Shown here piece after piece: positions 29,950 to 51,975 of a DNA stretch of 54,090 nucleotides (the stretch's first letter is position 1; every line of letters begins with the position of its first letter). The notes below the pieces were generated by a model, which saw only the letters and a program-made list of their open reading frames with translations, searched no databases and was not told where the DNA came from. Origin of the DNA: Candidatus Moraniibacteriota bacterium (GTDB lineage: Bacteria; Patescibacteriota; Minisyncoccia; Moranbacterales; UBA11712). The position numbers were made by a program, and so were the translations under genes. Where the stretch lies: positions 1 through 54,090 of the forward strand of contig JAQUQQ010000002.1 of the NCBI GenBank assembly GCA_028716005.1. Reading direction: 5' to 3'.

Positions 29950-29984
29950 GCGTTACCGGTTATGCGTTATGCGTTATGCGTTAC
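29950..29984. repeat. Heptanucleotide array, GCGTTAY family, 5 units
   Basis: gcgttac cggttat gcgttat gcgttat gcgttac; begins 5 nt after the rpoD TAG (minus-strand sense). Confidence 0.9.
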
Positions 29985-29988
29985 ACGA

Positions 29989-31289: not shown

Positions 31290-33089
31290 CTATTCAAGCT
31301 GGCTCGACAAATTTTGGAATTCCTGAAGCAACGCTTTCGCCGCTTTTTTATCGCCGGATTTCTCGGCTTCTTTTATTTTTTTGGAGAATTCAACTGTCTT
31401 TTCTTTGATCCTCATGCTTCTATGCCTTTTCAGTGATTTTTTGAGATCCTCTTCCGGAAAAGGAATTCTGTTTTCATCCCTTTCCACTTCAATTTCAAAG
31501 ACAGCCTCGTCAATCAGCCTTTGGGCTTCAAAATCAAAAACCAAGTTTTTTATTTTCTCGGAATCTTCCCCCGGCTTTTCTTTTTTGATTCTTTCGATTA
31601 TTTTTTCTGTCTTGTCTGAAAATTCTTTCGGGTCGATAGCCGCCTTTTGCCTTTCCGTCTCCCGGGGAAAAGCGAGCAGAAGGCCGATTATTCTTCTTTC
31701 CACCGCTTTTTCTTTTCCCGCGCTTTGGAAAGAAGCGTTCTCCTTTTGCCCGGCAGCCGTTTTCGGTTCGCTTTTGGCTTTTCTCAAAATTTCGACCAAG
31801 GCTCCTTCCCCGACACCCAGTTTTTCGGCCAGCTTCTTGATCCAGTGCCCCTTTTCAACGGGGTTGGAGATATCTTTCAAAACATTCAAAAGTTCTTTGG
31901 CGATTTTTTTCTTGTCGGCCGGATTTTTCGGGTCATGCCGCGAAAAGGCGTCCTCAAAGAAATATTCAACGACTTCCCGGGCCCCTTCGACCGCCTTTTC
32001 CCAAACGGCCTTGTCTTCCCGGACAACATCCGCCGCGTCCTTGCCTCTTGGCAACAGGACTATTCTAACATTCAAATCATTCTCAAGGCAAACTTTGGCG
32101 CTTCTTCTGGCCGCCGTCTGCCCGGCCGCGTCCATGTCAAAGGCCATCTTGATATTTTCCGTATAGCGCCTGATGACTTTTATCTGTTCCGGTCCGAAAG
32201 CCGTTCCGGAAACCGCTATCGTGTTTTGCAATCCCGCCTGCTGGGAAGCAATCACGTCCATGTTTCCTTCCACTAGTACGACTTCATCCCTCTTTTTGAT
32301 TTCAGTTTTGGCAAAATTGAGCCCATAAAGCACTTTGCTTTTGTCATAAAGTTCCGTCTGGGGCGTATTTATGTATTTGGCCGTTTTTTCGTCTCCGCCG
32401 GGAGCCACCCGCGCCGCAAAGCCCACCACCCGGCCCATGATGTCTTGAACCGGAAACATAATTCTATCCCTGAATCTGTCGTAAGCGTTAGTATTTGGTA
32501 TCTTGTATCTGGTATCCGGTATTTTGTTCTCGGAATCCTTTTCGACCAGCAGGCCAGTTTTAGCAATGTCCTCTATTTTATAATTTTTCTTCTGTAGAAA
32601 CTCCAGCATATTCCTCCATCCTTCCGGCGCGTAGCCGAGGCGGAATTTTTTGATTGTTTCGTCCGTGAGGCCACGTCCCCGCAAATATTTCAATATTTTG
32701 TCTTGGCCTTTTCCCTCCCAAAGATTCTTTTCATACCATTTCGCCGCGAGTTCCAAAATGTTATATAGTTTCGGCTTTGCGCTTTCTTTTTCCCTATCGC
32801 CCTTCTCAAATCTTTTCAGCTCAATTCCGGCTTTTTGGGCCAGCTGTTCAAGCGCTTCCCGAAATTCAATTCCTTCCATTTCCATCACAAAAGTGAAAAT
32901 GTCTCCGCCTTTTCCGCAGCCAAAGCAGTGAAAGCTCCGTCGCTCTTCGCTCACCATGAACGAGGGTGTTTTTTCATTATGAAAAGGACAGAGAGCCCTC
33001 CAAGCGCTCCCTGCTTTTTGAAGCCGGACATATTCGCCGACCAGATCAACGACACTTATTCTGTTTTTTATATCTTCAACGTCGGACAT
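31290..33089 (-). CDS. dnaG: DNA primase
   Basis: ORF 31290-33107 (GTG), trimmed to the ATG at 33089 (MSDVEDIKNR). CHC2 zinc finger CPFHNEKTPSF...CFGCG; TOPRIM VLVEGNMDVIA. Confidence 0.92.
   Translation of the reverse strand: MSDVEDIKNRISVVDLVGEYVRLQKAGSAWRALCPFHNEKTPSFMVSEERRSFHCFGCGKGGDIFTFVMEMEGIEFREALEQLAQKAGIELKRFEKGDREKESAKPKLYNILELAAKWYEKNLWEGKGQDKILKYLRGRGLTDETIKKFRLGYAPEGWRNMLEFLQKKNYKIEDIAKTGLLVEKDSENKIPDTRYKIPNTNAYDRFRDRIMFPVQDIMGRVVGFAARVAPGGDEKTAKYINTPQTELYDKSKVLYGLNFAKTEIKKRDEVVLVEGNMDVIASQQAGLQNTIAVSGTAFGPEQIKVIRRYTENIKMAFDMDAAGQTAARRSAKVCLENDLNVRIVLLPRGKDAADVVREDKAVWEKAVEGAREVVEYFFEDAFSRHDPKNPADKKKIAKELLNVLKDISNPVEKGHWIKKLAEKLGVGEGALVEILRKAKSEPKTAAGQKENASFQSAGKEKAVERRIIGLLLAFPRETERQKAAIDPKEFSDKTEKIIERIKKEKPGEDSEKIKNLVFDFEAQRLIDEAVFEIEVERDENRIPFPEEDLKKSLKRHRSMRIKEKTVEFSKKIKEAEKSGDKKAAKALLQEFQNLSSQLE
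32489..32523. repeat. Heptanucleotide array (GTAT family, 5 units) in frame inside dnaG
   Basis: tagtatt tggtatc ttgtatc tggtatc cggtatt; translated as NKIPDTRYKIPNT just before the conserved YDRFRDRIMFP. Confidence 0.88.
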
Positions 33090-33127: not shown

Positions 33128-33146
33128 TTTGGAAAATATTTCTAAA
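33128..33146. repeat. AT-rich hairpin between the two inverted arrays
   Basis: tttggaaa-ata-tttctaaa (8 bp including one G-T). Confidence 0.6.
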
Positions 33147-33180
33147 CGTTCTGCGTTACACGTTCTACATTACACGTTAT
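33146..33180. repeat. Heptanucleotide array, GCGTTAY family, 5 units
   Basis: acgttct gcgttac acgttct acattac acgttat; overlaps the TAA stop (33177-33179) of the next gene. Confidence 0.8.
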
Positions 33181-39871: not shown

Positions 39872-42313
39872 CTACCTCTCCATCTTCTCAATCGCAATCA
39901 TTGTCTTGATGACCGTATCCGGGTTGAGGGATATAGAATCAATTTTTTCCTTCACTAAAAATTGAGCAAAATCAACAAAATCCGACGGCGCCTGGCCGCA
40001 AATTCCGACTTTGCGGCGGGCTTTGTGGGCTTTTTCTATAACTTGGCGGATGAGTTCTTTCACGGCTTCATTGCGCTCGTCATAGACATGCGCCACTTTG
40101 GCGCTGTCCCGATCCACTCCAAGAGTGAGTTGCGTGAGATCGTTCGAACCGATGGAAAATCCGTCAAAAATTTTTGAAAATTCCGCGGCGAGAATCACGT
40201 TCGAAGGAATTTCACACATAACGTTAACCTGAAGACCTCCTTCTCCGCGCTTGAGTCCATATTTTTCCATTTCAGCGAGAACTTTTTTTCCTTCCTCGAC
40301 CGTCCGGCAAAATGGAATCATGGCTTTCATGTTCGTGAGTCCCATCACATCGCGCACTTTCTTGAAAGCCAGGCACTCGAGGCGAAATCCTTCTTTATAA
40401 TCTTCGTCATAGTATCTCGACGCCCCCCGCCAGCCAATCATTGGGTTTTCTTCAGCCGGTTCGAAACTCTTTCCGCCAATCAAGGTCGCGTATTCATTCG
40501 TTTTGAAGTCCGACATCCGAACAATCACGTCTTTCGGCCAAAAAGCGGCGCAAATCCGCCCGATTCCCTCGGCCAATTTCTCCACAAAAAAATCTTCTTT
40601 GTTTTTATAGCCCTGCGTGAGTTCGTTGATTTTCTTTTTTTCCTCTTTTTCTTTCACTTTCTCGAAATGGATGAGAGCCATCGGGTGGATTTTGATATAT
40701 TCCGTGATGATGAATTCTTCTCGGGCGAGGCCAACACCATCGTTTGGTATAAAACTCAAGTCAAAAGACTGATCGGGATTGCCGACATTCATCATAATCT
40801 TCGTCTTCGATTTTTTGATATTTTTGAGGTTGGTTGTTTTTATCTCAAATTTGAGAAGGCCGTCATAGACATGCCCCTCTTCCCCCTCGGCGCAGCAGAC
40901 TGTCACCGGCTTTGTGTCTTTCACGGCGCTGGTCGCGTTTCCGGCTCCGACAATGCAGGGAATTCCAAGCTCGCGCGAAACAATCGCCGCGTGGGATGTC
41001 CGACCGCCGGAATTCGTGACAATGGCCGAAGCAATTTTCATGATTGGCTCCCAGTCCGGATCAGTCATTTCCGTCACCAGGACTTCGCCTTTTTTGAAAT
41101 CCGCGATTTTAGCCACGTCTTTGATCACATTGGCTTTCCCTTGACCGATTTTTCCTCCCACTGCCGCGCCAGTGCACAAAATTTTGCTTTTTGATTTCAA
41201 AATATATTCTTCAAGGACATTCTTTTCTTTTTGCGACTGCACGGTTTCGGGACGGGCCTGGACGATATAGAGTTTTCCGTCTCGGCCGTCTTTGGCCCAT
41301 TCGATGTCCATCGGCTTTTTGTAGTGCTCCTCAATGATGAGCCCCCACTTGGCCAGTTCCAGCGCTTCTTCATCCGTGAGACAGAATTTTTTTTGGTCTT
41401 CCTGCGAAACCGCCACGTTTTGAGTTGAAGCCCCGCCCCCGACGGAATAAACCAGTTTCGTTTCCTTGCTCCCCAGCTTTTTCCCGACAATTGATTTGAA
41501 TCCCTTTCGAAGAGTCGGCTTGTGAACGATGAATTCATCCGGATTAACCTTGCCCTTCACGATATTTTCTCCAAGACCCCAGGAGCCGTTCAGGATAATC
41601 GCGTCCGAAAATCCCGATTCAGTGTCGATCGTGAACATCACCCCGCTTGAAGCCTCGTCGGAGCGCACCATTTTTTGCACTCCTACCGAAAGAGCGATTT
41701 TGAGATGGTCGAAACCCTTATCCACGCGATAGGATATGGCCCGATCGGTGAAAAGTGAAGCAAAACATTTCTTGATCGACTCAAGAATTTGATATTCTCC
41801 GGTGATGTTGAGATAAGATTCCTGCTGACCGGCGAAAGACGCGTCCGCAAGATCCTCGGCGGTCGCGCTGGATCGCACCGCGACGTCCACTCCGCCGGCG
41901 AAATGATTGGTATGATCTTTTTTGTCCCAGCTTATTTTGAAACTGCGGTGCGGATTATATTCACGGGAAAGTTTCGAGTATGATTCAACGATTGAATTTC
42001 GAAGGTCGAAAGGAAATTCCGCCGAAAGAATAGCCTGGCGCACTTTGTATCCTCGTTCGGCGAGATTTCGCATATTTCCCGTATCAAGGCCCTTCAGAAT
42101 TTTTTTGATTTCCGCGTCCAGATTATTCTGGCGCAAAAAATAGCGGTAAGCTTCGGAGGTTATGGAAAAACCATCAGGAATTCTGATTCCATACTTGCGA
42201 AGATTCCGATGCATTTCCCCAAGCGAGGCGTTTTTCCCGCCGACAAGTTCGATATCTTTTATTCCGGTTTCACGAAACCAGAGAATGTATTTTGTTTTTG
42301 TATTGTATATCAT
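39872..42313 (-). CDS. ppsA: Phosphoenolpyruvate synthase (pyruvate, water dikinase)
   Basis: 813 aa. ATP-grasp N-terminus, swivel His GGRTSHAAIVSRELGIPCIVG, C-terminal PEP-utilising TIM barrel. Confidence 0.93.
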   Translation of the reverse strand: MIYNTKTKYILWFRETGIKDIELVGGKNASLGEMHRNLRKYGIRIPDGFSITSEAYRYFLRQNNLDAEIKKILKGLDTGNMRNLAERGYKVRQAILSAEFPFDLRNSIVESYSKLSREYNPHRSFKISWDKKDHTNHFAGGVDVAVRSSATAEDLADASFAGQQESYLNITGEYQILESIKKCFASLFTDRAISYRVDKGFDHLKIALSVGVQKMVRSDEASSGVMFTIDTESGFSDAIILNGSWGLGENIVKGKVNPDEFIVHKPTLRKGFKSIVGKKLGSKETKLVYSVGGGASTQNVAVSQEDQKKFCLTDEEALELAKWGLIIEEHYKKPMDIEWAKDGRDGKLYIVQARPETVQSQKEKNVLEEYILKSKSKILCTGAAVGGKIGQGKANVIKDVAKIADFKKGEVLVTEMTDPDWEPIMKIASAIVTNSGGRTSHAAIVSRELGIPCIVGAGNATSAVKDTKPVTVCCAEGEEGHVYDGLLKFEIKTTNLKNIKKSKTKIMMNVGNPDQSFDLSFIPNDGVGLAREEFIITEYIKIHPMALIHFEKVKEKEEKKKINELTQGYKNKEDFFVEKLAEGIGRICAAFWPKDVIVRMSDFKTNEYATLIGGKSFEPAEENPMIGWRGASRYYDEDYKEGFRLECLAFKKVRDVMGLTNMKAMIPFCRTVEEGKKVLAEMEKYGLKRGEGGLQVNVMCEIPSNVILAAEFSKIFDGFSIGSNDLTQLTLGVDRDSAKVAHVYDERNEAVKELIRQVIEKAHKARRKVGICGQAPSDFVDFAQFLVKEKIDSISLNPDTVIKTMIAIEKMER

Positions 42314-42332
42314 GTATTTTGTATTATGTATT
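42298..42332. repeat. Heptanucleotide array, GTAT family, 5 units
   Basis: ttgtatt gtatatc atgtatt ttgtatt atgtatt; spans the ppsA start (42311-42313) and the TAA of the four-helix-bundle gene (42324-42326). Confidence 0.8.
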
Positions 42333-42698
42333 TTTTATTTTTTTTAATCCGCAGATCAATTTGTGTGCTACAATTGTTTGATTCGCAATTCTACTAAAAT
42401 CTTCTTTTTGCAAATAGCCCACATCCCGTGCAACAGTTAACTGATTCTGAAGTTCAGTCAAAGAGCCTAACGCTATGGCATAAAATTGTAATTTTTCTTT
42501 GATTGTATTCCGGCTAAAACCCTCTGCGATGTTAGAAGTTATAGAAACAACGCAACGCCTCATCTGAATAGTTAATCCGAAAAGTTCTTCTTTAGGAAAA
42601 TTTTTTGTAACTTCATAAACTAAAAGGACGAGTTTATGTCCTTCTCGCCAAGCATTTAAATCTGTGAAAGATTTTATTTTACTTCCCTCCTTAATCAT
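42324..42698 (-). CDS. Four-helix-bundle protein (23S rRNA intervening-sequence protein family, TIGR02436-like)
   Basis: 124 aa. FTDLNAWREGHKLVLLVYEVTKNFPKEELFGLTIQMRRCVVSITSNIAEGFSR...LQFYAIALGSLTELQNQL. Confidence 0.82.
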   Translation of the reverse strand: MIKEGSKIKSFTDLNAWREGHKLVLLVYEVTKNFPKEELFGLTIQMRRCVVSITSNIAEGFSRNTIKEKLQFYAIALGSLTELQNQLTVARDVGYLQKEDFSRIANQTIVAHKLICGLKKIKNT

Positions 42699-42730
42699 AC
42701 ACTATACGCTATACAAAATACACTATACAC
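42696..42730. repeat. Heptanucleotide array, GTAT family (ATAC orientation), 5 units
   Basis: catacac tatacgc tatacaa aatacac tatacac; the first 3 nt are the start codon of the four-helix-bundle gene, and the last nt begins the pyk TAG. Confidence 0.85.
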
Positions 42731-44208
42731 TAAGAAATTTCCTCTACCTTCACCAAACTCATATGCTCTTTTTTCATGTGCGGGCGTCCGGCGACAATCA
42801 CCACTTTGTCTTTTCTTTTCAGCAGCTTGTTTTTTTTGAGAGTGGCGATTGATTTGTCCAGAAGTTCGTCCAAATCCCGGCAATCCGGAAGAACGAAACT
42901 TTCCGCTCCCCAGACCAAGGTGAGCTGATTGTGAGTTTTTTCTCGGTTGGTCATCACGAATAATCTCTCTTCCGACCGGTGCCGGGCAATTACTCGAGCC
43001 GTAAAACCAGAAACGCTGGCGGCAACAATGGCTTTGGCCCCGCTGTCCTTCACGAGTTCGTGGGCTGATTGGGCAATTGCTGACGAAACTGACATTTTTT
43101 CATCGCTCAAAAATCCATGCTCGAGGTCGTCAAAAGGAGACTCCTCTGTTTTTTCAATTATTTTTCTCATCATCCTGACAGCTTCCACCGGATATTTCCC
43201 GCTGGCTGTTTCCCCCGAAAGCATCACGGCGTCCGCGTGATCAATGACCGCGTTTGAAACGTCCGTCACTTCCGCTCGCGTCGGACGAGGATTCCGGATC
43301 ATGGAGTCGAGCATCTGGGTGGCCACAATGGCCGGCTTTCCGGCTCGCAAGGCTTTCGCTACCATTTCCTTTTGAAGAATGGGGAGTTCTTCCTGGGGCA
43401 TTTCAATTCCCAAATCTCCCCGGGCAACCATAATCGCGTCGGAAACTTTGAGGATTTCATTGAAATTTTTGACTGCCTCCCTTCTTTCAATTTTTGCGAC
43501 CACCTGGGGAATCCTTTTTTCGTCGGATATTTTTTTTCTTATCAATTGCTGGAGATCTTTTATTTCTTTCGCGTTCCGGACAAAAGACATGGCCACAAAA
43601 TCCGCGTCTTGAGAAAGAGCAAAATCCAAAACTTCTTTGTCCTGGCTCGTCAGCGCCCCAAGTTTCGCCGAAATTCCCGGAATATTGACTCCTTTCCTCA
43701 TTTTGATGACCCCGTCGTTTTCAGCGCGACAATGCAAACATTTTTTATCTTTTTTGAAAACCGAGAGCTTGATCAGACCGTCTTCAACCAAAATTTCATT
43801 GCCTACTTTGACAAGCTTCGTCACTTCGGGAAGATCAAGAAAAATGTTTTTCTGCCGGCCACTTTTTTTTGCAAATCTGCGGTTTCTGCCAGCTACCAGC
43901 AAAGTTTCACCTTTTTTGACTTTCACTTCCCGGTTCCCGATTGTTCTGATCCTTGGCCCTTGAAGATCGGCCATTATTCCGATTGGCTTTCTGATTTTTC
44001 GGCTCACCTCGCGGATACTCTTGATTGCTCTTTTATGAGACGCGAAATCTCCGTGCGAAAAATTGAGCCGGGCAACATCCATTCCCTCCCTTGCCATCTG
44101 CCGAAGCACTGATTTTTTTTCTGAAGCCGGACCGATGGTGGCAATTATTTTGGTTCTCTTTCCGCCAGAGGCGGATCCGCCTTTGGCGGACATTCCATCA
44201 TTTGTCAT
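42730..44208 (-). CDS. pyk: Pyruvate kinase
   Basis: ORF 42730-44220 (TTG). More likely ATG at 44208 or 44193. KIIATIGPAS, MVARGDLGIE, C-terminal regulatory domain. Confidence 0.9.
   Translation of the reverse strand: MTNDGMSAKGGSASGGKRTKIIATIGPASEKKSVLRQMAREGMDVARLNFSHGDFASHKRAIKSIREVSRKIRKPIGIMADLQGPRIRTIGNREVKVKKGETLLVAGRNRRFAKKSGRQKNIFLDLPEVTKLVKVGNEILVEDGLIKLSVFKKDKKCLHCRAENDGVIKMRKGVNIPGISAKLGALTSQDKEVLDFALSQDADFVAMSFVRNAKEIKDLQQLIRKKISDEKRIPQVVAKIERREAVKNFNEILKVSDAIMVARGDLGIEMPQEELPILQKEMVAKALRAGKPAIVATQMLDSMIRNPRPTRAEVTDVSNAVIDHADAVMLSGETASGKYPVEAVRMMRKIIEKTEESPFDDLEHGFLSDEKMSVSSAIAQSAHELVKDSGAKAIVAASVSGFTARVIARHRSEERLFVMTNREKTHNQLTLVWGAESFVLPDCRDLDELLDKSIATLKKNKLLKRKDKVVIVAGRPHMKKEHMSLVKVEEIS
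44161..44190. repeat. Twin 15-nt hairpin GC element, copy inside the pyk 5' end
   Basis: tccgcc-aga-ggcgga tccgcc-ttt-ggcgga; translated as SAKGGSASGG at the pyk N-terminus. Confidence 0.85.
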
Positions 44209-44261
44209 TCCCACATTCAATCACATATTATAATACATTTTTACTATTCTAGTATAAACCA

Positions 44262-45612: not shown

Positions 45613-45778
45613 TAAAATCCTAAATTCTAAACACTAAATCCCAAACAAATTCTCAGCCAGAGGCTGATCCGCCTTTGGTGGAAAATTATCAAAATTCAAA
45701 TGACCAAACTACTTTTGACTTTCGTCATTTCGAATTTTGATATTATTTAGGATTTCGAAATTAGGATTTAGGATTTTG
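45613..45778. mobile_element. MITE-like composite: inverted CTAAATY heptad arrays flanking a twin hairpin and an AATGAC hairpin
   Basis: Left taaaatc ctaaatt ctaaaca ctaaatc ccaaaca (45613-45647). Twin hairpin at 45653-45682. aaatgac...gtcattt. Right tatttag gatttcg aaattag gatttag gattttg (45744-45778). Confidence 0.45.
45653..45682. repeat. Twin 15-nt hairpin GC element
   Basis: tcagcc-aga-ggctga tccgcc-ttt-ggtgga. Confidence 0.85.
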
Positions 45779-47568: not shown

Positions 47569-48012
47569 ATGGACTGGAAAAACTATATAGTCATAATCGT
47601 TCCAATCGCCGTCGGGCTTTTCACTCAAGCTTTGAAATTTTTTCTTTATTCACTGAAGCACGGATTCAGGTGGGAATATGCCTTCACGCATGGCCACATG
47701 CCCAGCGCTCATACGGCTTTCGTCATTTCAACTCTCACGAGTATCGGCTATTTTGAAGGAACAACCTCCGGAGTTTTCGCTCTCGCTTTCATCTTTGCTT
47801 TTATTATTATTGACGATGCTGTGCGCCTCCGGGTATTTCTCGGAGACCAGGGAAGATACCTCAACATGCTGGTTGATCAGCTCCCCGTAGACAAGAAAAA
47901 ATTCCCTCGCCTGAAAGAGAGAATCGGCCATCGCATTTCCGAAGTTATTGCTGGCGGCGCTATTGGTCTTATTTTTTCATTTGTTCTGATAAAATTTCTC
48001 GAATCACTCTAG
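47569..48012 (+). CDS. Divergent PAP2 family protein (DUF212)
   Basis: 147 aa. HGHMPSAHTAFVISTLTSIG, IIIDDAVRLR. Confidence 0.75.
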   Translation: MDWKNYIVIIVPIAVGLFTQALKFFLYSLKHGFRWEYAFTHGHMPSAHTAFVISTLTSIGYFEGTTSGVFALAFIFAFIIIDDAVRLRVFLGDQGRYLNMLVDQLPVDKKKFPRLKERIGHRISEVIAGGAIGLIFSFVLIKFLESL

Positions 48013-49267
48013 GGTCGTTCCAGGGAATCCTTTTTGCGCCGACTACCATTATCTCTTCCGCCCCTTTCCCGGTGACGGCGACTATATCTCCCGACTTTGC
48101 AATCTGCAAGGCTTTTTTGATGGCTTCGCGACGATCAAATATCCGCCAGGCATTTTCGTTTTCTTTTTTGTGTTTCAAAACTCCAGCAAAAACTTCGTCA
48201 ATAATTTTTTGAGGATCTTCATTATACGGATCTTCATTGGTGACAAAACAATAGTCAGCATGTCGCGCCACAATTTCTCCCATAATCGGCCTCTTGCCCC
48301 GGTCTCTTTCTCCGCAAGAGCCAAAGACGGCGATTATTTTCGCGTTTTCTTTTTTTAGCTTGTTTATATAATTATATAATTTTTCGAGCGAATCCGGTGT
48401 CACGGCGAAATCAACAATGATTTCGAGTCCCCGGTCATTCTCAATATGCTCCATCCTGCCGGACACGCCTTTTATTTTCGCGAGAGCCTGTGAAATTTTC
48501 GGCAGCGCTATATTTTGTGAAAGTCCCACGCACGTCGCGGCCAAAGCGTTTTCGACATTAAATTCCCCCGGCAAATTAATTTGGAAGCTAGTATCTTGTA
48601 TTTGGTATTTGGTATTTTCTGTCCCTAGTTCAATGTTTTCGGAAATAATTTCGTGGAACGTATTGAACTGTGTTATGCGTTCTACGTTACGCGTTGCAAG
48701 ATGATATCCGTATTTATCTTTTACTCCATACTTTAAAAAATCCTCTGCTTTTTCCATTGCTAAATTAACCACTGTTGCTCCATTTATATTCTTCGCTGTC
48801 ATCGCAAATAGCTTTTCTTTCGCTTTCGCATACTTTTCCATCGTTTCGTGGTAATCAAGATGTTCCCGCGTTAAATTCGTTATCGCCGCCACATCGAAAT
48901 CGGTGCCCCAGACGCGGTTTTGGTCAAGTGAATGCGAAGATATTTCGAGAACGGCATAACTGCAACCCGCTTTAACGGCTTCGCTCAGATGTCTTTGCAA
49001 TCGCCAGCTGGAAAGCGTCGTAAACTTTGTGTCGTTCACCCATTCTTTTTCGCCGATCTTGAAATTTATGGTCGAGGCTACGGCGACCTTGTCGCCGGCC
49101 TCTTCCAGAATTTTGGCTATCATCTGCACCGTCGTCGTTTTGCCGTTCGTTCCCGTCACTCCTATAGCTTTCAATTTCCTTGACGGAAAACCATGCCAAA
49201 CATTCGCGAGAACCGCTTGGAAAAGATGATATATGTTTTTGACGGATTGGGGAATGATCTTTTTCAC
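47969..49267 (-). CDS. murE: Mur ligase, MurE-like (UDP-MurNAc-tripeptide synthetase)
   Basis: 432 aa. IGVTGTNGKTTT, LEISSHSLDQNRV, NLTREHLDYH, DRREAIKKAL...GKG. The 3' end overlaps the convergent PAP2 gene by 44 nt. Confidence 0.82.
   Translation of the reverse strand: MKKIIPQSVKNIYHLFQAVLANVWHGFPSRKLKAIGVTGTNGKTTTVQMIAKILEEAGDKVAVASTINFKIGEKEWVNDTKFTTLSSWRLQRHLSEAVKAGCSYAVLEISSHSLDQNRVWGTDFDVAAITNLTREHLDYHETMEKYAKAKEKLFAMTAKNINGATVVNLAMEKAEDFLKYGVKDKYGYHLATRNVERITQFNTFHEIISENIELGTENTKYQIQDTSFQINLPGEFNVENALAATCVGLSQNIALPKISQALAKIKGVSGRMEHIENDRGLEIIVDFAVTPDSLEKLYNYINKLKKENAKIIAVFGSCGERDRGKRPIMGEIVARHADYCFVTNEDPYNEDPQKIIDEVFAGVLKHKKENENAWRIFDRREAIKKALQIAKSGDIVAVTGKGAEEIMVVGAKRIPWNDPRVIREILSEQMKK
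48589..48616. repeat. Heptanucleotide array (GTAT family, 4 units) in frame inside murE
   Basis: tagtatc ttgtatt tggtatt tggtatt; translated as NTKYQIQDT. Confidence 0.85.
48670..48697. repeat. Heptanucleotide array (GCGTTAY family, 4 units) in frame inside murE
   Basis: gtgttat gcgttct acgttac gcgttgc; translated as ATRNVERITQ. Confidence 0.8.
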
Positions 49268-49343: not shown

Positions 49344-50378
49344 TCACGGCTTTATTCTTCTTAGTGTTTTATATATCCAATATTTCGTGGGATTCAAGAT
49401 TATATCATAGCATCCAGGAAATTCAATAGTCCTTGTCTCCGGCGCAAAGCCGGTTTTGAATTTTGTGATTCCTGCCCAGTTTTTGTATTTAGTATTTGGT
49501 ATCTGGTATTTGGTATTTACTCCTCCGAGATCGTATTTTATACAGCCATTCTTTTTTGCATCGATAATCGTTTGCCATTGGAGAAGATACGGCGCCATCG
49601 CATCGCGATGCGCGTTATCCGACGCCCCGTGCATATACGTCGCCGTTTTTCCAAAAAACAAAACCAAGTTCGCGGCAATAATTTTCCCCTCATATTCGGC
49701 AGCATATAGTTTCAAAATTTCCGGTGGAATTGTTTCGAACATTTTTCGATAATAGTTTTCGGGATGTGCCGTAATCTTATCCCGCTGACTGGTGATTTTC
49801 ACTAGTCTCAAAAACTCTTCGATATTTTCCTGCGCTATACGTTCCACGTTATGCGTTATGCGAACGCCTTTCTTTTGAGAAAGGCGAATATTGTACCGCG
49901 TTTTCTGCTTCATTCCTGCCAAAATTTCTTCTTCGCTCTTCGAAATATCCAAAACCAATATTTCCCTCGGCTGCATATTCACCGGTGATTTTTTCATTTT
50001 TTTCTCTTTCGACAGACTTTCTTTTATCATCTCCAATCCTTCCGCGCTATTCGGCTCAACCCGAATCCAACCAACATTATTTTCTTTCGACAGACTAATT
50101 AAATTATCAAGAAAAATTTTTATTTTCCTCTCCGCGTTTTGCGTTATGCGTTTTGCGTTGTGCGTTACCGGTCCCCGTGGCACATAAAAATAATTCCCAA
50201 CAAGAGGAAGCGAATGCGCTATCGCATATGCATATATGAAAGCATTGCCATTTTCCTTTTCCTCCAGCTCAAAAGTTTTTCGACCGACACTTTCCTGAAA
50301 CTTCCGCCAATAAACTGATTGCAAAAAGCCCCCATGAGGGGAATTTTGTTGAACAAAATCAAAAAAATTCTTCTCCAT
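49344..50378 (-). CDS. femX: FemAB-family peptidoglycan bridge-forming aminoacyltransferase
   Basis: ORF 49344-50420 trimmed to the ATG at 50378 (MEKNFFDFVQQ), because the extension is encoded by a heptad array. FLQSVYWRKFQ, YMHGASDN...APYLLQW, KFKTGF. Confidence 0.8.
   Translation of the reverse strand: MEKNFFDFVQQNSPHGGFLQSVYWRKFQESVGRKTFELEEKENGNAFIYAYAIAHSLPLVGNYFYVPRGPVTHNAKRITQNAERKIKIFLDNLISLSKENNVGWIRVEPNSAEGLEMIKESLSKEKKMKKSPVNMQPREILVLDISKSEEEILAGMKQKTRYNIRLSQKKGVRITHNVERIAQENIEEFLRLVKITSQRDKITAHPENYYRKMFETIPPEILKLYAAEYEGKIIAANLVLFFGKTATYMHGASDNAHRDAMAPYLLQWQTIIDAKKNGCIKYDLGGVNTKYQIPNTKYKNWAGITKFKTGFAPETRTIEFPGCYDIILNPTKYWIYKTLRRIKP
49483..49517. repeat. Heptanucleotide array (GTAT family, 5 units) in frame inside femX
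   Basis: ttgtatt tagtatt tggtatc tggtatt tggtatt; translated as NTKYQIPNTKYK. Confidence 0.9.
49832..49866. repeat. Heptanucleotide array (GCGTTAY family, 5 units) in frame inside femX
   Basis: gcgctat acgttcc acgttat gcgttat gcgaacg; translated as RITHNVERIAQ. Confidence 0.85.
50134..50168. repeat. Heptanucleotide array (GCGTTAY family, 5 units) in frame inside femX
   Basis: gcgtttt gcgttat gcgtttt gcgttgt gcgttac; translated as VTHNAKRITQNAE. Confidence 0.9.
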
Positions 50379-50412
50379 ATACCAAATACTAGATACTAAA
50401 TACCAGATACTA
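50378..50412. repeat. Heptanucleotide array, GTAT family, 5 units, filling the ruvA-femX junction
   Basis: tatacca aatacta gatacta aatacca gatacta; the last 3 nt are the ruvA TAG, and the first nt is the last base of the femX ATG. Confidence 0.9.
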
Positions 50413-50979
50413 CTTCCCAAGATTCTTGAGCGCCGCCCGCACTCTCTCTGAAATGTCTTTTATTTTTTCTGGAACATTTTTCAAGGCTTCACGAGACTGG
50501 GTATTCGTGTATCCTAACGAAATCAGCGCTTCTATCGCTTCGGAATCGGCTTTAGCCGAACCTCCATCTTCCCCCGGAAGCTCAATGATACGATTCTTGA
50601 GTTCAAGGATCACCCGCTCGGCCGTCTTTTTTCCAACTCCCGAAACGCGCGTCAGAATCGATGAATCGCCCGATATCACCGCCGCCCGAATTGTTTTCGG
50701 CTCCGCGATGGAAAGGATTCCCATCGCAGCTTTCGGCCCGATTCCGGAAATGGAGATGAGCAGTTCAAACATTTCGAGTTCATCCAGAACCAAAAACCCG
50801 TAAAGCGACAGAGTGTCCTCGCGAACATAGGTATGGGTGTATAATTCTATTTCCTCTTTCCCGGCGATTTTCCCCATTGTAAAATCAGTGACGAATATCT
50901 TGTATCCGACTCCGGAAACGTCCACGATGACGTAGCTGTCGCGAAAAAAAGCGATTTTTCCTGTTATTTTGGCAATCAT
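50410..50979 (-). CDS. ruvA: Holliday junction DNA helicase subunit RuvA
   Basis: 189 aa. MIAKITGKI..., two HhH motifs (ISGIGPKAAMGIL, VSGVGKKTAERV). Confidence 0.92.
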   Translation of the reverse strand: MIAKITGKIAFFRDSYVIVDVSGVGYKIFVTDFTMGKIAGKEEIELYTHTYVREDTLSLYGFLVLDELEMFELLISISGIGPKAAMGILSIAEPKTIRAAVISGDSSILTRVSGVGKKTAERVILELKNRIIELPGEDGGSAKADSEAIEALISLGYTNTQSREALKNVPEKIKDISERVRAALKNLGK

Positions 50980-50983
50980 ATGT

Positions 50984-51018
50984 TTGTATCTAGTATATAG
51001 TATCTGGTATTTGGTATA
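50984..51018. repeat. Heptanucleotide array, GTAT family, 5 units
   Basis: ttgtatc tagtata tagtatc tggtatt tggtata; begins 5 nt upstream of the ruvA ATG. Confidence 0.88.
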
Positions 51019-51120
51019 TTTTTACAATACCTCGCGACTATTTACAAAAATAACTAACTGTGTTAGAAATATAGAGTGTTTTCAACCATTTTAAATTTTC
51101 AATTGTAATTTTTAATTTTT

Positions 51121-51150
51121 TCAGCCAAAGGCTGATCCGCCTCGGGAGGA
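51121..51150. repeat. Twin 15-nt hairpin GC element
   Basis: tcagcc-aaa-ggctga tccgcc-tcg-ggagga; lies between the divergent ruvA and rpsT. Confidence 0.85.
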
Positions 51151-51944: not shown

Positions 51945-51975
51945 TTTGCGTTATGCGTTATTTGTTGCGCGGATC
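51941..51975. repeat. Heptanucleotide array, GCGTTAY family (degenerate ends), 5 units, filling the holA-GNAT junction
   Basis: tcatttt gcgttat gcgttat ttgttgc gcggatc; GNAT ATG at 51942-51944, holA TGA at 51974-51976. Confidence 0.65.

Follow-up and report, generated by a model that had tools for sequence, protein, structure and literature searches.

A candidate promoterless cassette with a four-helix-bundle gene and inverted heptad arrays at the pyk-ppsA junction of a Moraniibacteriota bacterium

A bracketed gene between pyk and ppsA

In the 54,090-nt stretch of Candidatus Moraniibacteriota DNA analysed here (the whole of contig JAQUQQ010000002.1 of assembly GCA_028716005.1; hereafter, the window), the genes for pyruvate kinase (pyk) and phosphoenolpyruvate synthase (ppsA) have between them a small open reading frame (ORF) that encodes a four-helix-bundle (4HB) protein of the 23S rRNA intervening sequence (IVS) family. 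This ORF is bracketed by two arrays of tandem seven-nucleotide units, or heptads, that are inverted with respect to each other (Table 1).

Both arrays run into the ends of the surrounding genes. Read on the coding strand, the 5' array consists of five TAGTGTA-type units (TAGTGTA, TAGTGTA, TTTTGTA, TAGCGTA and TAGTGTA, followed by TG); the pyk stop codon TAG (42730-42732) opens it, and the ATG of the 4HB ORF (42696-42698) closes it. The 3' array holds both the 4HB stop codon TAA (42324-42326) and, at a spacing of 10 nt, the ppsA ATG (42311-42313), so that the terminal KNT* of the 4HB protein and the MIYNTKTKY at the start of PpsA are array-encoded. The inverted match between the two arrays extends over 34 nt with 74% complementarity (inverted repeat I1). 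While the window pyk ends in VEEIS* and passes directly into the array, pyk of relatives ends in VEEIN* or VEEIK*, and where relatives begin PpsA with MKQKYILWF, the window has MIYNTKTKYILWF. As far as this sequence comparison tells, the ppsA start codon and approximately the first eight codons (including IYNTKTK) are cassette-derived.

Neither a promoter-like nor a terminator-like site was found at positions 42100-42900 of the window, in which the 4HB gene is single-copy. Because the arrays provide the upstream gene with a stop codon and the downstream gene with a new in-frame ATG, the insertion leaves the operon unbroken. We consider it probable that positions 42286-42732 (approximately 420-450 bp) form one discrete promoterless insertion cassette, composed of (i) the 5' array; (ii) the 4HB ORF; and (iii) the 3' array, the inverse of the first. 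A 4HB start site further downstream, suggested by the Shine-Dalgarno-like AAGGAGG just after the ATG, was rejected, as no in-frame ATG, GTG or TTG is available and the homologs share the array-embedded ATG.

A first-pass annotation, made from the window sequence alone, had placed inverted heptad arrays around the gene, between the pyk stop and the ppsA start, and had read the C-terminus of the cassette gene and the MIYNTKTKY of PpsA as array-encoded; our coordinates and codon positions agree with both statements. Its GTAT-type arrays were likewise recovered in inverted orientation, but their proposed length of 35 nt was not, since Tandem Repeats Finder extends them slightly. Furthermore, it had assigned the protein to a four-helix-bundle family found in 23S rRNA IVSs and related to the Avd proteins, an assignment borne out by a PF05635 match above the cutoff, while the similarity to Avd is weak and sub-threshold.

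The 4HB ORF matches PF05635 (23S_rRNA_IVP) with an E-value of 6e-35 and 120.1 bits (Pfam cutoff 33.8), and the NCBIfam model TIGR02436 ('four helix bundle protein') with 109.9 bits (cutoff 24). PF05635 and a weak match to bAvd are its only Pfam matches, which include no HUH/Y1 (IS200/IS605-like) transposase domain, and the PADLOC defence-protein models gave no match at E <= 0.01. The nearest solved structure is that of XCC0516 from Xanthomonas campestris (PDB 2GSC; E 6e-22 over residues 12-111), from which the fold is assigned by homology only. Compared with its homologs, the 4HB gene has a dN of 0.2-0.3, a saturated dS and a dN/dS of approximately 0.06-0.13; as this ratio is near 0.1, we conclude that the protein is functional and under purifying selection rather than decaying. 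The family is large: with the window 4HB protein as the sole query, more than 7,400 non-redundant clusters were matched at E <= 1e-10. A scan of viral contigs, by comparison, returned two matches only, at 46% identity, and therefore the cassette is not mainly phage-borne.

Table 1. Coordinates in the window of the cassette, its host genes and the other heptad arrays
Feature	Position	Strand	Support or remark
pyk (pyruvate kinase), upstream host gene	42730..44220	minus	Pfam PK and PK_C
4HB cargo ORF, 124 aa, 23S rRNA IVS protein family	42324..42698	minus	PF05635, TIGR02436
ppsA (phosphoenolpyruvate synthase), downstream host gene	39872..42313	minus	Pfam PPDK_N, PEP-utilizers, PEP-utilizers_C
5' heptad array, G/T-rich, C-poor	42696..42732	minus	Tandem Repeats Finder 42697-42732: period 7, 5.1 copies, score 51
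3' heptad array, ATAC-type, A/C-rich on coding strand	42286..42341	minus	Tandem Repeats Finder: period 7, 8.1 copies, score 63
In-frame array in dnaG	32491-32525
In-frame arrays in Mur ligase gene (47969..49267)	48591-48618; 48672-48699
In-frame arrays in FemAB gene (49344..50378)	49485-49519; 49834-49861; 50134-50167
ORF-less inverted pair CCTAAAT ... ATTTAGG between lemA and htpX	45619-45647; 45745-45776
Inverted GTAT-type arrays around ruvA (50410..50979)	50376-50410; 50986-51020
GCGTTAT-dialect arrays	29952-29986; 33146-33179; 51947-51970		further copies intragenic

Empty sites, other insertion sites and the layout across the family

Close relatives were gathered by a metagenome scan with the ppsA N-terminus. 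In eight of them pyk lies directly upstream of ppsA, adjacent and co-directional, without a 4HB gene; ppsA identity to the window gene is 86-89% among the closest. At two loci (L082 and L083), where ppsA is 88-89% and pyk 67-68% identical to the window genes, only 13-17 nt lie between the pyk stop and the ppsA ATG, and neither a 4HB gene nor an array is present. As the junction is uninterrupted in these two relatives, the 4HB gene is not ancestral synteny, and the first-pass annotation, which had proposed looking for relatives with such an uninterrupted junction, here finds its answer. The alignments thus identify the pyk-ppsA junction as ancestrally tight and the cassette as inserted into it.

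Arrays of other dialects (that is, with other heptad units) but without an ORF occupy the pyk-ppsA junction in some relatives (L084, L087, L094 and L096), among them a TACGAAT array (L087, 1483-1763) and an inverted GTCAAAT/ATTTGGA pair (L096, 2169-2360). At a locus from a more distant relative (L097, 185-565; ppsA approximately 60% identical), a divergent TIGR02436 gene with inverted flanks lies directly upstream of ppsA, which suggests that the 5' junction of ppsA has been colonised more than once.

The same cassette type is also found elsewhere. The nearest homolog of the window protein (P0002 on contig L162; 83% identical) has an upstream gene unrelated to pyk. Its 5' array is of the AGTGTAT type, the dialect of the window cassette, and its 3' array corresponds almost base for base to that of the window, including ...ACATGATACACAATACAAAAACAAA. 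Because a near-identical string, ATACATAATACAAAATACATGATACACAATACAAAAACAAA, follows the L162 copy at its unrelated site, the 3' array DNA, with the ppsA start codon in it, belongs to the cassette; by this alignment, the gene and its arrays travel together.

Three further homologs, 72-75% identical to the window protein (P0003, P0062 and P0054), lie between porD and porA in operons encoding a 2-oxoacid:ferredoxin oxidoreductase, with gaps of 10-46 nt. In all three, the 3' array supplies an ATGATAC that gene callers take as the porA start, as happens with ppsA in the window, and in two of the three por lineages the stop-to-ATG spacing is the same 10 nt. Across the porGDAB operons of different Patescibacteria (L163 and L166-L174), three mutually different 4HB proteins occupy the identical porD|porA junction, indicating either long vertical residence of the cassette or a recurrent hot spot. 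The loci L003 and L004, considered as a pair of independent insertions, were discarded as such: they come from the same metagenome-assembled genome, have identical arrays and are variants of the same porD|porA-type locus.

Short-read contigs with the cassette often stop within the 3' array, as L001 and L162 do, and many homologs are available only on contigs of approximately 1 kb. The arrays probably break such assemblies, so that the family may have a copy number and genomic context other than those apparent.

We then examined 80 homolog loci with proteins 43-74% identical to that of the window, from Patescibacteria, Bacteroidota, Atribacterota, Nitrospirota, Omnitrophota, Sericytochromatia, Campylobacterota and others, using the other ORFs of the same 80 loci as controls (n=480 or 487). 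With a period-agnostic score, inverted flanks matching at >=14 were found for 60 of the 80 homologs and for 8 of 480 control ORFs (Fisher p = 5e-54). Under the strict requirement that a period-7 array be present on each side and that the two consensus heptads be reverse-complementary, the proportions were 23/80 and 3/487. Both outcomes favour the first-pass annotation, which had proposed testing further 4HB genes for inverted heptad flanks. Taken singly, a period-7 array within 100 nt was present upstream of 45 homologs and downstream of 46.

The heptad itself varies by lineage (GTATTAT, GAATTAT, GATTTAA, GGAATAT, TAGCGTA, TAGTCGT, TAGTGAA, TAGGGTA, GGTTGTT and others), while the inverted arrangement is kept across lineages and the period of 7 in most loci. 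In at least two loci, from Bacteroidota and SAR324 (L054 and L073), the inverted flanks repeat at 8 nt (AAAGGCAC, TAGTCGTT), so the period is not absolutely fixed across the family. Arrays most often have four units (range 2-9). The G/T-rich arm is 5' of the ORF, with a positive G-C skew in 42 of 46 upstream arrays, and in 24 of these 46 loci the upstream array reaches or contains the ATG. In 73 of 78 loci (baseline 79%), the gene upstream has the same direction as the 4HB ORF, and the median gap to it, approximately 45 nt, is filled almost entirely by array. Across the family, in many phyla, the 4HB gene lies close behind a co-directional host gene and is bracketed with the same layout and polarity.

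An independent case of an array over a start codon is provided by the crystallised family member XCC0516, the protein with the family-defining structure: in X. campestris, four GGGAATC units (repeat #15, minus strand) lie 6 nt after bccP (XCC0517) and overlap the XCC0516 start codon (-17) (PMC4692102, supplement). In the full-text literature searched, which for the most part does not extend to subscription journals, we found no paper linking PF05635 genes generally to heptamer arrays, only the case of the Coxiella IVS; it appears that no family-wide link of 4HB genes to inverted heptad arrays has been described.

Mechanism and competing explanations

We regard it as probable, by analogy, that the cassette is a promoterless IVS-type selfish element, the operon counterpart of the ORF-bearing 23S rRNA IVSs. 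Such an element would be transcribed by read-through from pyk. Its arrays would then pair in the transcript into an interrupted stem of approximately 27 bp that encloses the ORF and buries the start codons of both the 4HB gene and ppsA; the stem might be cut by RNase III, as in rRNA IVSs, and/or be opened by ribosomes translating the 4HB ORF, whose translation could be coupled to ppsA initiation through the 10-nt stop-to-ATG spacing. Tandem heptads may be used since they can pair in several registers and can grow or shrink by slippage. The most speculative step is that the 4HB protein, as a relative of Avd, might act on arrays of its own dialect.

Consistent with this scheme, the minimum free energy and centroid folds both pair the two arrays around the ORF in an interrupted stem of the length given above, with the 4HB AUG at its top and the 4HB stop and ppsA AUG in its 3' strand. 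The duplex energy of the arms, -23.8 kcal/mol, was reached by none of 1000 composition-matched shuffles. The inverted-match score of the window arms, 12.5, is modest (4.8% of control ORFs reach it), and their significance comes from the paired, correctly oriented arrays and from the comparative data.

Several observations weigh against reading the cassette as a selfish insertion that acts through its transcript. The predicted stem is AU-rich and weak, and 27% of random segment pairs from the window reach -23.8 kcal/mol; since random window segments do as well, duplex energy alone is not evidence. The fold of the whole region has a z-score of only -1.5, and the arm mismatches have no sense G-U bias (33 sense-wobble, 45 antisense-wobble and 107 transversions). 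From these models, the evidence that the arms act as an RNA stem rather than as a DNA-level terminal inverted repeat is weak. The cassette has no mobility enzyme, and alignment of the window to the empty sites of L082 and L083 revealed no target-site duplication, only an A-rich microhomology, AAACAAAA, at the right junction. The three diverged proteins at porD|porA look old and vertically inherited, which fits a resident as well as a mobile element. Finally, many arrays of the window lie far from the 4HB gene, inside coding sequence, or around host genes with opposite polarity, and for this reason the arrays are not merely cassette ends. A conventional insertion sequence or miniature inverted-repeat transposable element was rejected, given that neither a transposase domain nor a target-site duplication is visible.

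Approximately 14 arrays of period 7 are present in the window as a whole, and they fall into at least three dialects (GGTATYT, GCGTTAT and CCTAAAT). No short period other than 7 and its multiple is enriched: of the arrays scoring >=12, five were found at period 7, six at its multiple 14 and none at the other periods between 2 and 15; ten shuffles yielded none. Eight of the window arrays have a GTAT core. Because arrays are not confined to the 4HB gene, a chance juxtaposition had to be excluded by means of other loci. The intragenic arrays, in dnaG, the Mur ligase gene and the FemAB gene, are always in stop-free orientation and encode, for example, NTKYQIPNTKYKN and THNAKRITQNAERK; the Pfam domain spans of the conserved genes that carry arrays exceed their profiles by 12-16 residues, consistent with insertions. 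The GCGTTAT dialect always reads as such on the plus strand.

The arrays that bracket ruvA might be taken to mean that, with so many arrays in the window, an ordinary small gene simply happens to have one on each side, heptad arrays being a general intergenic feature. We consider this very improbable: the inverted flanks distinguish the homologs sharply from the control ORFs, at other sites, too, the gene is accompanied by its arrays, the closest gene-less relatives are without arrays at the junction, and the ruvA arrays have a polarity opposite to that of the 4HB cassette. The same opposite polarity is seen at glycosyltransferase genes beside 4HB cassettes (L028, L034 and L035) and in the lemA/htpX pair, where the arm after the lemA stop is A/C-rich and the arm adjoining the htpX ATG is G/T-rich.

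A more serious rival takes up the role of protein partner, which the first-pass annotation had offered beside that of passenger: the 4HB protein would act in trans to recognise, maintain or spread the arrays of its own dialect throughout the genome, in the manner of the REP-associated tyrosine transposases (RAYTs) and the REPINs, the bracketed gene being autonomous and the solo arrays, the in-frame ones included, non-autonomous. Several results suit it: the heptad dialect follows the protein clade, and at two loci (L061 and L067) a second 4HB copy on the same contig carries a dialect of its own; solo arrays match the 4HB-flank unit of their own locus in 28 of 86 cases (33%), compared with 36 of 430 cross-locus pairings (8%); outside cassettes, the density of period-7 arrays is 0.096/kb for 4HB loci and 0.092/kb for the window, approximately 7-fold above the 0.014/kb of ppsA-centred loci from the candidate phyla radiation, and at almost zero in the closest relatives with an empty site; the solo GTAT arrays of the window share the core of the cassette arrays; and the 4HB gene is under strong purifying selection, while its relative Avd, a pentamer, binds nucleic acid. 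Plain co-inheritance of gene and arrays, however, would also make dialects track clades, and the comparison covered local neighbourhoods only. Moreover, the family has no known catalytic motif, small genes of the GxxExxY family are bracketed similarly, so that the architecture is not 4HB-specific, and the GCGTTAT and CCTAAAT dialects lack a cognate gene anywhere in the 54 kb. The idea of one heptad per subunit of a pentamer was discarded, as it predicts five units per array where the observed peak is four. On balance, a trans-acting role of this kind strikes us as possible but doubtful. The wider proposal, that 4HB and possibly GxxExxY proteins are the missing partners of heptamer arrays, each clade with its own dialect, and drive or maintain their spread, even in frame into essential genes (dnaG and those for Mur ligase and FemAB, for example), we hold to be unlikely; it would resemble the RAYT/REPIN case, but with tandem 7-mers and a pentameric nucleic-acid binder that is no enzyme.

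Alternatively, the arrays and the small protein could be a device of the host that tunes pyk against ppsA, for example through mRNA processing or repeat-number phase variation. The position of the cassette exactly between two antagonistic enzymes, the location of both downstream start codons in the predicted stem, and the proposal that heptamer repeats just upstream of start codons are translational regulators (PMC4679880) would all accord with such a function. Yet the same cassette type occurs in unrelated operons (porD|porA; bccP/XCC0516 of Xanthomonas; and the non-pyk gene of L162), and the closest relatives keep pyk-ppsA without it, which makes this explanation improbable. That the gene is an Avd accessory gene of a diversity-generating retroelement is scarcely credible: its similarity to bAvd (PF22296, 25.9 bits) and to DivGenRetAVD (22.5 bits) is far below the respective cutoffs of 40 and 80, there was no PADLOC match, and the immediate neighbours are pyk and ppsA, with no adjacent reverse transcriptase (the rest of the window was not scanned for one).

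An approximately 26-nt motif, CAGCCARAGGCTGATCCGCCTYKGG, occurs twice in the window (at about 45655-45680 and 51125-51150), both times beside heptad arrays, and combines a small hairpin with a G/C-rich tail; it had no Rfam match.

PF05635/TIGR02436 is a very large family without known function, known mainly from 23S rRNA IVSs and as a relative of Avd, and the lineage-specific heptamer arrays recorded for decades in Xanthomonas, cyanobacteria, Beggiatoaceae and Bacteroidetes have gone unexplained. The window and the 80 homolog loci establish a physical link between the two. If the cassette is an IVS-type selfish element, rRNA IVSs may be recast as a single niche within a much wider class of selfish cassettes carried inside transcripts, and RNase III processing of operon mRNAs, dialect-specific protein binding and donation of start codons to downstream genes would be predicted. 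If, instead, the 4HB protein were the partner of the arrays, this would account for the ORF-bearing rRNA IVSs, for the function of the family and for the way in which STRR-, TAACTGA- and GGGAATC-type repeats arose.

Comparison with known systems

The small genes of the GxxExxY/PDDEXK_3 family (TIGR04256, PF13366) were found in a comparable setting at four loci (L172, 5624-6052; L173, 3613-4041; L071, 2472-2888; and L052, 5325-6131), wedged co-directionally within operons (porA|porB in L172 and L173). Like the 4HB cassette, they lie between inverted short tandem repeats, of which the upstream arm is G-rich; however, their fold, which is PD-(D/E)XK nuclease-like, is unrelated, the period is less regular (approximately 7-13 nt), and the window contains none of them. 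That GxxExxY genes share a similar bracket speaks against the 4HB gene as the exclusive partner of the arrays.

With the Avd protein of diversity-generating retroelements (bAvd, PDB 4DWL), the 4HB protein shares a homologous four-helix-bundle fold, and 2GSC is pentameric like Avd, to which its homology has been noted (PMC10053308). Unlike a retroelement Avd, the 4HB protein remains below the family cutoffs, and its gene has no adjacent reverse transcriptase, template or variable repeat. The likeness to repetitive extragenic palindromic (REP) sequences, REPINs and RAYTs consists in a small gene flanked by inverted copies of a dispersed short repeat whose type tracks the protein clade. RAYTs, on the other hand, are HUH/Y1 transposases with known chemistry, in contrast to the 4HB protein, and REPs are palindromes of approximately 20-40 nt rather than tandem heptads.

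Cyanobacterial short tandemly repeated repetitive (STRR) sequences belong to the bacterial heptamer repeats. Others described are TAACTGA in Beggiatoaceae, Cyanobacteria and Bacteroidetes (PMC4679880), and GGGAATC in Xanthomonas and GGGGAYT in Nostoc (PMC4692102). With these, the arrays described here have in common (i) tandem 7-nt units in 2 to 14 or more copies; (ii) a mostly intergenic location, often directly upstream of start codons; (iii) some convergent inverted pairs; (iv) a stop-free orientation within ORFs; and (v) lineage-specific dialects. The main texts of both papers contain neither 'S23' nor 'helix bundle' and do not tie the repeats to PF05635.

The closest counterpart is the ORF-bearing 23S rRNA IVS of Coxiella burnetii, Leptospira, Brucella and Haemophilus, which has cargo of the same family (PF05635, 'S23p'). 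In Coxiella, three to four tandem GACAGAT heptamers of strain-variable copy number immediately precede the S23p ORF, the terminal inverted repeats of the IVS form a 28-bp stem, and RNase III cleavage falls at the first repeat (Warrier et al. 2016, PMC4990558). Like rRNA IVSs, the cassette carries its ORF in sense within the host transcript, enclosed by terminal inverted repeats and without a promoter of its own; like the Coxiella IVS in particular, it has tandem heptamers directly upstream of the ORF. It differs in that both arms are heptad arrays, which give the neighbouring genes stop and start codons, and in that its 4HB gene is under purifying selection while the Coxiella ORF is decaying. 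Excision by RNase III has been shown for rRNA IVSs, whereas for the cassette it would hold by analogy only. Rfam found no family at the cassette and none, including rRNA, in 20 homolog loci; in the window, it found only a tRNA. Located between the protein genes of an operon, and so failing the defining location of an IVS inside an rRNA gene, the window instance is an IVS-type element embedded in an mRNA operon.

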